A stretch of DNA of 64,000 nucleotides, taken from Rhizobiaceae bacterium. Its GTDB lineage: Bacteria > Pseudomonadota > Alphaproteobacteria > Rhizobiales > Rhizobiaceae. The position numbers and the translations under genes were made by a program. The notes below the pieces were generated by a model. It made no database searches, was not told where the DNA came from, and saw nothing but the letters and a program-made list of their open reading frames with translations. Below are positions 14,168 through 56,553 of this stretch, in pieces. The stretch lies in the NCBI GenBank assembly GCA_050247155.1, contig JBFWUS010000021.1:3666-67665 (forward strand), written 5' to 3'. How positions within the stretch are numbered: the stretch's first letter is position 1; every line of letters begins with the position of its first letter.

Positions 14168-14551
14168 TTAGCCGACTTTGGGGGCCGCAAGGGCATTACC
14201 CGGAACATACAGCGCAATCGGCCTGATCTCGTAGACAGCTGTCGGATTGGCGCGGCGAAGGCCACGCGCGATCTCAACCACCTCATCCCGGCTGGCGCAA
14301 TCCACGACATAGAGCCCAAGCAAGGCTTCCTTCGTTTCGGCAAAAGGTCCGTCGATCACATCGCCCGCGCCGGGACCGCGCAGCGTGAAGGCCGCGGCGG
14401 TGAAATCCAGCCGTGCCGCTGGCCCCATCTTGCCCTGATCGACGAGGCCGTTGTGATAGCTCAACAGTTCGGTCATCAGCGCGGCATCTTCTTCCGGGCT
14501 CATCGAGGTGATGGCGTTTTCTTCATGATAGGCCAGGATGGAGTAGAGCAA
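14168..14551 (-). CDS. YciI/DGPF-domain protein
   Basis: VIDGPFAETKEALLGLYVVDC, EIRP; TTG start after GAGG; the longer ORF-track extension runs through the palindromic element. Confidence 0.85.
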   Translation of the reverse strand: MLYSILAYHEENAITSMSPEEDAALMTELLSYHNGLVDQGKMGPAARLDFTAAAFTLRGPGAGDVIDGPFAETKEALLGLYVVDCASRDEVVEIARGLRRANPTAVYEIRPIALYVPGNALAAPKVG

Positions 14552-14685
14552 GAGGCACCTCTTCGGCGTTCGCGGTGCGCGAGTATTGTCGAGATGGCGG
14601 CCAGACGCTAGCCAAGCTTGCACATCGGTTTTGACATTTTGATCGGCCAAACCGGCTTGATCCGTCGCGCGATTGCCGCCAACAG

Positions 14686-14959
14686 TTAGAGCAATATCTG
14701 ACCTGATTGAACCATTCTGCCGGCGATGGTTTGGGACAAGATCAAGGACTTCCTCGAAGGTCGGACTGGTTGTCCGGCCGAGAGGAAGTCCGACGGAATT
14801 GGCCCAAACCAGCCCGGCCCTTTGGGTTTGCCGTGTGGCGGACGCCCACGTCGTCAGGCCGCTCGGCCGGGCAACCAGCCCGACCTTCGCGTCCTTCCTG
14901 GTGGATCGCCTCGCCAAACGGCAAACAGAATGATTCAATCAGGACAGATATTGCTCTAA
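14686..14959. repeat. 274-bp branched palindromic element with 34-bp terminal inverted repeats (MITE-like / structured RNA or ssDNA candidate)
   Basis: TIR TTAGAGCAATATCTGACCTGATTGAACCATTCTG (14686-14719) vs 14926-14959, 32/34 match; several internal inverted repeats. Confidence 0.85.
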
Positions 14960-14980
14960 GGACGAACCGGAGGATTTCCC

Positions 14981-15976
14981 ATGACCAACAGTTTTACCGC
15001 CCTGATGATCGAGGACGAGGGTGGGAAACCCAAGGCCGGCTTCAAGACCATTACCCAAGCCGATCTGCCCGACCATGACGTGCTGGTGGAGATTTCGCAC
15101 TCGACGCTCAACTACAAGGACGGGCTGGCCGTATCTGGCAAGGGGCGAATCGCCCGGCGCATGCCGATGGTGGCCGGCATCGACCTCGCCGGCACCGTGG
15201 TCGAGGACCGGTCAGGCAAGTGGAAGGCCGAGGACAAGGTGGTGCTCAACGGCTTCGGGCTGTCCGAAACCGAATGGGGCGCCTATACCCGCTTCCAACG
15301 CGTCAAGCCGGAATGGCTGATCAAGCTGCCGGAGGCTTTTTCGCCCCAGCAGGCGATGGCGATCGGTACGGCCGGGTATACGGCGGCGCTCTGCGTCATG
15401 GCCCTGGAAGCTTGGGGCACGATCAAGACCGACAAGCGTGAGGTGCTCGTAACCGGTGCAGCTGGCGGCGTCGGCTCGACGGCGATCATCTTGCTTGCGC
15501 AGCGCGGCTACAAGGTGACGGCGGCGACAGGCCGGCCGGAGACGCATGACTATCTGTCGGCCCTCGGCGCGACGGGTTTCGTCGGCAGGGCGGAACTGGC
15601 TGAAAAGGGCGCTCCGTTGCAAAAGGAGCGCTGGGCCGGCGCGGTGGATTCCGTCGGCTCGACCACATTGGCAAACGCGATTGCGCAGACCGTCTATGGC
15701 GGCGCGGTCGCGGCCTGCGGCCTCGCAGGCGGAGCTGATCTGCCGGGCACCGTGCTGCCACACATTCTGCGCGGCGTCGCCCTGCTTGGCGTCGATTCGG
15801 TGATGGCCCCAATGGCCAAGCGCGAGGCTGCTTGGAAGCTGCTTGCGGAAAGTCTAAATGCCGATCAGCTCGCGAAAATGACCCGAGTCGAGCCAATGTC
15901 GAAGCTGCCGGACCTTGCGCAGGAAATTCTGGCCGGCCAGGTGCGCGGGCGCGTGGTGATCGAGATCGGCAAATAG
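14981..15976 (+). CDS. MDR family oxidoreductase, AcuI/YhdH type (acryloyl-CoA reductase-like)
   Basis: STLNYKDGLA, AMAIGTAGYTAAL, VTGAAGGVGS, ILRGVALLGVDS. Confidence 0.9.
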   Translation: MTNSFTALMIEDEGGKPKAGFKTITQADLPDHDVLVEISHSTLNYKDGLAVSGKGRIARRMPMVAGIDLAGTVVEDRSGKWKAEDKVVLNGFGLSETEWGAYTRFQRVKPEWLIKLPEAFSPQQAMAIGTAGYTAALCVMALEAWGTIKTDKREVLVTGAAGGVGSTAIILLAQRGYKVTAATGRPETHDYLSALGATGFVGRAELAEKGAPLQKERWAGAVDSVGSTTLANAIAQTVYGGAVAACGLAGGADLPGTVLPHILRGVALLGVDSVMAPMAKREAAWKLLAESLNADQLAKMTRVEPMSKLPDLAQEILAGQVRGRVVIEIGK

Positions 15977-55117: not shown

Positions 55118-55121
55118 TGTT

Positions 55122-55215
55122 ACCCCCACCCCTTACCCCTCCCCTCAAGGGGGAGGGGGATTTTGAGACGCTGACGCCCCCCTCCCCCTTGAGGGGAGGG
55201 GTAAGGGGTGGGGGT
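55122..55215. repeat. G/C-run intergenic palindrome with a perfect 38-bp inverted repeat
   Basis: ACCCCCACCCCTTACCCCTCCCCTCAAGGGGGAGGGGG at 55122-55159 and its exact reverse complement at 55178-55215. Confidence 0.9.
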
Positions 55216-55280
55216 GGTTGACGGCATGTCAGACCGACTTGCTGGCAATTTTCTGTATGCAGATATCGAAGGACGCACCA

Positions 55281-56372: not shown

Positions 56373-56374
56373 TA

Positions 56375-56553
56375 GCGCCCCTTACCCTCCCCCTTGTGGG
56401 GAGGGTCGATCCTGAGCTTGCGAAGGATCGGGGTGGGGGTGGTTATAGTTTTGAGGGGCGAAAGGTTTTCTTTACCCCCACCCCGTCTCGCGATCACTTG
56501 CGTCGCAAGATGATCGCTCGCCGACCCTCCCCACAAGGGGGAGGGTGGGGCGC
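56375..56553. repeat. Rhizobial intergenic palindromic repeat (CCCTCCCC-TTGT-GGGGAGGG family)
   Basis: Perfect 25-bp inverted repeat 56384-56408 / 56522-56546, GCGCCCC/GGGGCGC ends, inner GGGGTGGGGGT/ACCCCCACCCC pair. Confidence 0.88.

Follow-up and report, generated by a model that had tools for sequence, protein, structure and literature searches.

A two-arm fold-back repeat upstream of an AcuI/YhdH-like oxidoreductase gene in a Rhizobiaceae bacterium is very probably an IS630-derived MITE

The window analysed here is a 64,000-nt stretch (C21:3666-67665) of a 5.4-Mb Rhizobiaceae genome in 147 contigs (G000, hereafter the host genome), and it contains a palindromic repeat of 274 bp between two divergent genes. 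The original prediction had described these as yciI-like and acuI-like, with the repeat ending 21 nt before the ATG of the latter, and this position is confirmed, Pfam assigning a YCII domain to one product and MDR oxidoreductase domains to the other. The YCII-domain gene most likely starts at a TTG (14549-14551), behind a GAGGTG ribosome-binding site; the program-made ORF list had extended its frame through the element to 256 aa (14168-14938, minus strand), which is spurious. The ribosome-binding site of the oxidoreductase gene, GGAGGA (14969-14974), is situated just outside the element. The features of the locus are as follows.

14168-14551, minus strand: YCII-domain gene, the divergent neighbour (Pfam YCII, E = 1e-20)
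14687-14688, no strand: left copy of the TA target dinucleotide (from the empty site in G004, a single TG between CAACAGT and AGGCCG)
14689-14719, plus strand: left terminal inverted repeat (TIR), consisting of GAGC, a 9-nt variable block and the conserved inner block CCTGATTGAACCATTCTG (the ends of the IS630-family elements L284, L239, L302 and L186 have this layout too)
14727-14811, plus strand: left arm, a fold-back hairpin with internal loops (inverted repeats; helices 2-4 pair in 97-99% of cells)
14759-14779, plus strand: left tip hairpin GGTCGGAC-TGGTT-GTCCGGCC, more conserved than any other module (a second MITE family of the host genome has the same 26 nt around it)
14813-14826, plus strand: small hairpin CCCGG-CCCT-TTGGG in the centre, at the three-way junction (99% of cells paired in helix 6)
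14827-14925, plus strand: right arm, a fold-back hairpin (inverted repeat; 11 pairs with double changes in helices 7, 8 and 10)
14865-14885, plus strand: right tip hairpin GGCCGGGC-AACCA-GCCCGACC, nearly the same as the left tip but in inverted orientation (inverted repeat)
14926-14956, minus strand: right TIR (inverted repeat and TIR comparison table)
14957-14958, no strand: right copy of the TA target dinucleotide (empty-site comparison)
14981-15976, plus strand: AcuI/YhdH-like zinc-type (MDR) oxidoreductase gene (Pfam ADH_N and ADH_zinc_N)

Reading of the region together with a repeat search placed the TIRs at 14686-14719 and 14926-14959 (34 nt, 94% complementary), the outer stem of the left arm at 14727-39 and 14799-811 (13 nt, 92%), its inner stem at 14746-55 and 14782-91 (10 of 10 paired) and the stem of the right arm at 14826-40 and 14912-26 (15 nt, 93%), while the arm tips, 14755-85 and 14859-89, are inverted copies of each other (31 nt, 90%). 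All the stems, TIRs and inverted tips of the original prediction were recovered in place by this search. The mobile unit is 14687-14958 (TA-GAGC...GCTC-TA), with T14686 and A14959 belonging to the flank of the target site. Both strands are predicted to fold into a branched structure made of an outer stem, the left arm, a small central hairpin and the right arm, at -159.1 kcal/mol (z -11.9) for the plus strand and -171.9 kcal/mol (z -15.4) for the minus strand, and none of 200 dinucleotide shuffles matched the fold energy of the element. The Rfam comparison that had been proposed gave no family above threshold, a permissive scan of the element returning only sub-threshold microRNA-hairpin noise (at most 28 bits, versus gathering scores of at least 90), and a promoter and terminator scan found no promoter-like or terminator-like site within it. 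One reading frame is open through most copies; the element was rejected as a coding sequence because the ATG-started frame is not conserved between copies and because the length typically added by a copy, 269 nt, is not divisible by three. The window contains two further repeats, both between yej genes: a perfect hairpin of ~95 bp at 55121-55216, of the CCCCTCCCC...GGGGAGGGG type, a member of a highly abundant family for which BLAST gives more than 150 hits in the host genome, and a palindromic repeat of ~179 bp at 56373-56550, with ~60 BLAST hits in the genome, which is of another family unrelated to the 274-bp element.

The orthologous locus in the sister species G004 is empty, reading ...CCAACAGT-TG-AGGCCGAACCGGAGG... 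at the point where the window has ...CCAACAGT-TA[GAGC...GCTC]TA-AGGACGAACCGGAGG... (in short, CAACAGT-TG-AGGCCG versus CAACAGT-TA[...]TA-AGGACG). When the joined flanks of the 14 full-length copies of the host genome were used as queries against sister genomes, flank matches spanning the junction were obtained in relatives for seven further copies; junctions were examined for six copies, and five of the six gave clean alignments, each with exactly one dinucleotide at the site. The empty sites with a TA duplication that had been proposed as a check are thus found, relatives having a single dinucleotide at the focal site and at five others. TA is present on the left of 10 of the 14 copies, on the right of 10 of the 14 and at nearly all copies of G007, and most copies are flanked by Y-TA...TA-R. 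As judged from these alignments, the element has inserted precisely at one TA dinucleotide, which is now found on both sides; a TA duplication is formally indistinguishable from insertion between T and A by an element with A...T ends. The idea of an IS110-type element with a bridge RNA was rejected, the flanks having only Y-TA-R in common. In three of the 14 copies (C38:7943-8213, C85:472-742 and C71:5254-5561) the terminal TAG of the element ends a flanking ORF, and at the C71 copy relatives have TGA at the empty site; targeting of TA in a GC-rich genome seems to favour stop codons. The copy at C65:15426-15697 appears inside a small ORF starting ATGGGTGACATCGTCAATCTCAGG, which is uninterrupted at the orthologous site of G004.

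The 14 full-length copies of the host genome are 270-308 bp long and have 83-93% identity to the focal copy, most of them being 271-272 bp including the TA at each end, a strikingly constant length. There are also left-arm-only copies of 162-163 bp (C4 and C24), right-arm-only copies (C22, C65b and C31), 68-bp copies with little beyond the terminal repeats (C3 and C86) and remnants, a search with the inner TIR motif adding one at C31:47985. Copies C71:5254-5561 and C26:15773-16079 carry an extra 36-nt GC-rich hairpin (TTGGCCTGCCCTCGG..CCGGTCCCGGGG) at the same point of the left arm, and represent a nested or mosaic variant. The TIRs are present in all 32 aligned copies. Among 41 relatives compared, only six have any match to the element. 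Within the same GTDB genus, the MAGs of which are labelled Mesorhizobium sp., the sister species G007 and G004 have at least 19 and 8 matches, respectively, and G001, G002, G003 and G005 have none. The suggested BLASTN copy-number check therefore shows a multi-copy element whose copy number varies between sister species, and amplification must have been recent, since nearest-neighbour identity reaches 98.2% in the host genome and 99.3% in G007. With its TIRs, small size, multiple copies and absence of a transposase gene, the element has the characteristics of a MITE.

Comparison with hairpin elements of Sphingomonadales indicated that the TIR is bipartite, composed of TA|GAGC, 9 variable nt and a conserved block (TTAGGTTGAACCAT in the main type). 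Scanning of metagenome contigs for TAGAGC-N9-TTAG-N-TTG-M-AC returned 120 stretches, and these gave, in addition to MITE-sized elements of 50-60, ~160 and ~270 bp, four longer elements with matching inverted ends, L284 (1091 bp), L239 (1055 bp), L302 (1050 bp) and the deletion form L269 (703 bp). All four are bounded by TAGAGC...GCTCTA, and TA flanks are present on L284, L302 and L269, the three with readable flanks; in one more element, L273, the matched end is at the contig end. The ORFs of these metagenomic elements match Pfam DDE_3 (E 3e-23 to 6e-33) and HTH_Tnp_IS630. The ends of the 1.05-1.09-kb ISs consist of TA|GAGC, 9 variable nt and TTAGGTTGAACCAT, a layout shared with the ~31-nt ends of the element, although the TIR similarity to the metagenomic ISs is partly imposed by the search pattern. 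A Pfam DDE_3 search, which is independent of the motif scan, recovered a 1092-bp IS630 element (L186) in G043, a MITE-bearing Mesorhizobium MAG, whose ends, TAGAGCGTCGTGC... and TAAAGCGTCGTGCCATTAATCTGACCC, resemble those of MITE subfamilies B and C and of the Novosphingobium type, as well as a truncated IS630 fragment ending in a TAGAGC terminus in G007. A transposase gene bounded by the same TIRs, which it had been suggested to look for, thus exists in IS630-family ISs of metagenomic contigs and of G043.

The host genome itself contains no homolog of these IS630 transposases by tblastn; BLAST with four TIR types matched only MITE copies there, and inverted pairs of TA[GA]AGC...GCT[CT]TA up to 4 kb apart gave nothing longer than 308 bp. 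A TIR pattern search of the complete genome G007 likewise gave only MITE copies and debris, the transposase being represented by a fragment only. Two candidates for a parent in the host genome were rejected. C134:380-1400, its sole DDE_3 match, is a degenerate IS630 remnant with unrelated ends (internal TAG stop; left end CTAGTGGTCCCAATCTAACACACG). The IS5-type IS beside copy C38 is unrelated as well, having the TIR GGCCTGTGGGGATT; this IS5-family element (C38:7052-7866) is single-copy, ~810 bp long, flanked by TAA/TTA and located ~80 bp from the MITE copy, and a similar IS end is found near copy C36. Since no cognate transposase is present, the copies of the element are orphaned in the host genome.

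TA duplication is an established hallmark of IS630/Tc1-mariner transposition. Taken together with the multiple copies, the empty sites and the TIRs in common with IS630-family ISs, we hold it very probable that the element is one copy of an IS630-derived MITE, so that, of the options in the original prediction, that of a non-autonomous mobile element is borne out. An IS630-type DDE transposase supplied in trans would bind the TIRs at their inner block, make its cuts at the TA|GAGC ends and insert the element at TA sites, and the cognate transposase would since have been lost from the host genome, leaving orphan copies. Against trans-mobilisation, a step which we infer, the genome of G007 is complete and contains near-identical copies, yet has only a transposase fragment. 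The element matched no named family among Rfam, the plasmid records and the literature searched, in which we found no paper printing these sequences and no described Mesorhizobium or Phyllobacteriaceae MITE; IS630-derived MITEs with a fold-back interior are, as a kind, well known.

Blastn against the plasmid and chromid records of Sinorhizobium, Rhizobium and Agrobacterium gave no match to the element, and against 17 further genera of its GTDB family it gave a single marginal, partial match (E 2e-5); of 400 genomes sampled evenly over the class, only 2 have the motif, plasmid records contain only weak copies, in Aminobacter and Phyllobacterium, and short-query blastn against plasmids gave chance hits only. 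Novosphingobium (L081, 271 bp; L062, 267 bp) and other Sphingomonadales nevertheless have elements that agree with the present one in tip and length and have homologous ends, the left tip module being conserved in Sphingomonadales MITEs too, and another alphaproteobacterial family has a 274-bp copy (L209) with a near-identical central hairpin, CCCGGCCCTTCGGG, which is the form of most family copies. Such a patchy distribution is as expected for a horizontally moving element. In G115, an alphaproteobacterial genome of 1.7 Mb, ~17 terminal-repeat hits (e.g. L206-L208) correspond to 165-bp single-arm MITEs with ends as here, TAGAGC...TTAGATTGAAC, and a different tip hairpin. The host genome contains, moreover, a second family of MITEs, ~268 bp long and with the ends TAGGGTCAGG...CCTGACCCTA, also written TAGGGTCAGGACC...GGTCCTGACCCTA (C15:17013-17280, C68:16643-16912, C19:73507-73775, C95:17236-17503, C94:4280-4549 and C5:105-372), which has the same two-arm design and most copies of which are TA-flanked. 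The left-arm tip of this second family is identical over 26 nt to GAAGGTCGGACTGGTTGTCCGGCCGA in the family of the focal copy. Its copies in G006 have G-C at one pair of the tip, where both families of the host genome have A-T; this tracking of the genome suggests, as far as sequence comparison goes, exchange between families within a genome or a host-specific constraint.

The pairing was examined in an alignment of 32 copies from four genomes and two MAGs. In the branched fold 97.1% of cells pair and 41 of 88 pairs have double changes, values reached by none of 500 shuffles, and pairing drops to 29-47% when partners are slid by one to three columns. Twenty of the 41 double-change pairs are in the outer stem, i.e. 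in the TIRs, and 21 in the internal arms, 10 of them in the left arm. The 9-nt variable block of the TIR falls into several types, and the two ends co-vary likewise in the 1-kb parent ISs, in which they are a kilobase apart and no hairpin is involved. The outer-stem ‘compensation’ thus reflects co-evolution of transposon ends and is not evidence for an RNA helix. Internally, the right tip has GGGC/GCCC in some copies versus GATG/CATC in others, and in one subfamily it is GGCCGATG-AACCA-CATCGACC, with three compensated pairs. G:T mismatches occur in 26 pairs and A:C mismatches in 19, and per-copy fold energies favour neither strand consistently; a strand-specific excess of G:U was judged unconvincing given these two counts and the fact that RNAalifold favours G:U on the strand supplied. 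The original prediction had taken the two tip differences as a sign that the local fold is selected. The compensatory double changes themselves are real and extend over tips and arms of the 32 copies, but selection at the RNA level does not follow from them, because there is no strand asymmetry and the same end co-variation is seen in the 1-kb parent ISs. In the single-arm variants C4, C24 and C65b the right end is the exact reverse complement of the left end, and the junction segment CCGGCGA is paired, whereas it is unpaired in the two-arm form. Because of these exactly matching ends, the arm complementarity most likely arises, on the sequences at hand, from DNA-level fold-back or template-switch copying between the palindrome halves, which would maintain the pairing of the arms; selection for a compact hairpin may contribute.

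These observations bear on the other ways in which the palindrome could be understood. It is very unlikely that it is a structured ncRNA or riboswitch-like regulator in which UGGUU/AACCA kissing loops, or a switch to a long rod, control the oxidoreductase gene. The very stable predicted fold, the complementary loops of the focal copy, the compensatory changes in the tip stems and the position between the presumed promoter region and the ribosome-binding site would all fit such a regulator, and kissing loops and rod both formed part of the original prediction. The loop changes, however, are never compensated across the 32 copies: double changes are absent from all five loop-loop pairs, the fifth of which fails to pair in 19 of the 32, and the other four are nearly invariant and hence uninformative. 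In G007 copies the left loop has become TGGTG (T to G) and the right loop has no matching change; in G004_C18, L037 and G007_p the right loop is CACCA (A to C) and the left stays TGGTT; and in a Hoeflea copy the right loop is entirely different. The complementarity of the loops follows trivially from the arms carrying a single hairpin module, inverted on one relative to the other. The rod fares no better, tip-to-tip pairing being 81.3% versus 80.2% in shuffles, with covariation below that of the shuffles. The lack of an Rfam match, the mismatch counts and the lack of a consistent strand preference also argue against a regulatory RNA, as do the copies in unrelated contexts and both orientations, some of them on stop codons. 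An element of the REPIN or IS200/IS605 type, moved as single-stranded DNA by an HUH (Y1) transposase or RAYT, could account for a hairpin-rich palindrome without a DDE partner in the host genome, and an HUH nuclease had been suggested as a partner; we regard this as extremely improbable, since Y1_Tnp (PF01797) is absent from all seven element-bearing genomes searched, including the host, G004 and G007, and its only match is in G002, which is without the element, and since the long true TIRs and TA flanks are unlike IS200/IS605 ends and the ends match IS630 elements.

A further proposal is compatible with the IS630-derived MITE and adds to it, namely that the two-arm architecture of ~271 nt and the invariant tip, although of MITE origin, are kept by selection for a function, such as a site for host-factor binding or processing, an RNase III site on transcripts or an enhancer of synapsis in transposition. 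We consider this possible, if on the whole unlikely. It would explain why the same design and length are found in Rhizobiales, in Sphingomonadales (L081 and L062) and in another family (L209), why the 26-nt tip is identical in the second, otherwise unrelated MITE family of the host genome, why the occurrence of A-T or G-C at the tip pair goes with the genome and not with the family, and why 21 internal pairs have double changes, and there are precedents in the Correia elements, which are cut by RNase III, and in bcr1, with its compensated cruciform-like fold (PMC10969869, PMC3184786). A purely selfish MITE would not usually keep its interior architecture and length (~271 bp) from one bacterial order to another, which is a hint of some further constraint. 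The absence of strand bias speaks against selection, as does the persistence of single-arm, mini and insertion variants, and fold-back copying can create complementarity without selection, the paired junction segment of C4, C24 and C65b being a case in point. More doubtful still is the stronger claim that the two-arm architecture and the tip GGTCGGRCTGGTTGYCCGG are a functional module of IS630-type MITEs and not mere palindromic filler, in which case the module may bind a host factor or the transposase, or act as a signal for RNA processing.

Reading the element as an IS630-derived MITE, one can also consider its place in the locus. Since the ATG of the oxidoreductase gene is only 21 nt from the insertion and the ribosome-binding site lies outside the element, the ancestral promoter must be upstream of the insertion. 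The element separates this ancestral upstream region from the ribosome-binding site and, lying between the two, it would probably be transcribed as a highly structured 5′ leader of ~270 nt, as far as can be judged from the arrangement of the sequence. The Correia or NEMIS elements of Neisseria are short palindromic MITEs with a TA duplication, and may serve as a working model for the present copy in its leader. They are often located between promoters and genes, RNase III cuts the long hairpins formed by their transcripts, and Correia and ERIC leaders are processed or alter mRNA stability (PMC10969869). In contrast to the element studied here, in which no promoter-like site was found, Correia elements are single hairpins of 100-200 bp, and they differ in the phylum-level lineage of the host, in sequence and in length.

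Among other known repeats, the element resembles IS630-family ISs and MITEs in the TA target on both sides, the TIR layout of L284, L239, L302 and L186, the small size without a transposase gene and the patchy, multi-copy occurrence, and it is unlike them in that the host has no cognate transposase and the two-arm fold-back interior is unrelated to a transposase gene. The bcr1 repeat of the Bacillus cereus group is MITE-like, ~155 bp long and transcribed, and compensatory changes keep its cruciform-like structure (PMC3184786). The element studied here similarly has compensatory base changes in a folded MITE-like repeat, but the sequence of bcr1 is unrelated, its direct repeat is of 5 bp and its hosts are Firmicutes. 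The Rhizobium-specific intergenic mosaic elements RIME1 and RIME2 and the Bru-RS1 and Bru-RS2 palindromes of Brucella (103-105 bp; PMC2267715) are, like the present family with its left-arm, right-arm and mini forms, palindromic mosaic intergenic repeats of Rhizobiales; in an indirect comparison, made from their descriptions, they differ in length and architecture, and the blastn searches of Sinorhizobium, Rhizobium and Agrobacterium records described above gave no match.

The family is a clean example of orphan IS630-derived MITEs, patchily distributed, horizontally spread across Alphaproteobacteria and with an unusually conserved two-arm design. For annotation of the genome, the false 256-aa extension of the YCII-domain gene can be removed and ~25 related insertions flagged. 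The element also calls for caution, as abundant ‘compensatory’ changes in a DNA palindrome can arise from co-evolution of transposon ends and from fold-back copying, and do not by themselves indicate a structured RNA. If the two-arm module were functional, such MITEs would act as portable cassettes for structured leaders, or as elements promoting their own synapsis, and should the element influence the oxidoreductase gene, MITE-mediated regulation of the Correia and ERIC type would gain an example from Rhizobiales.
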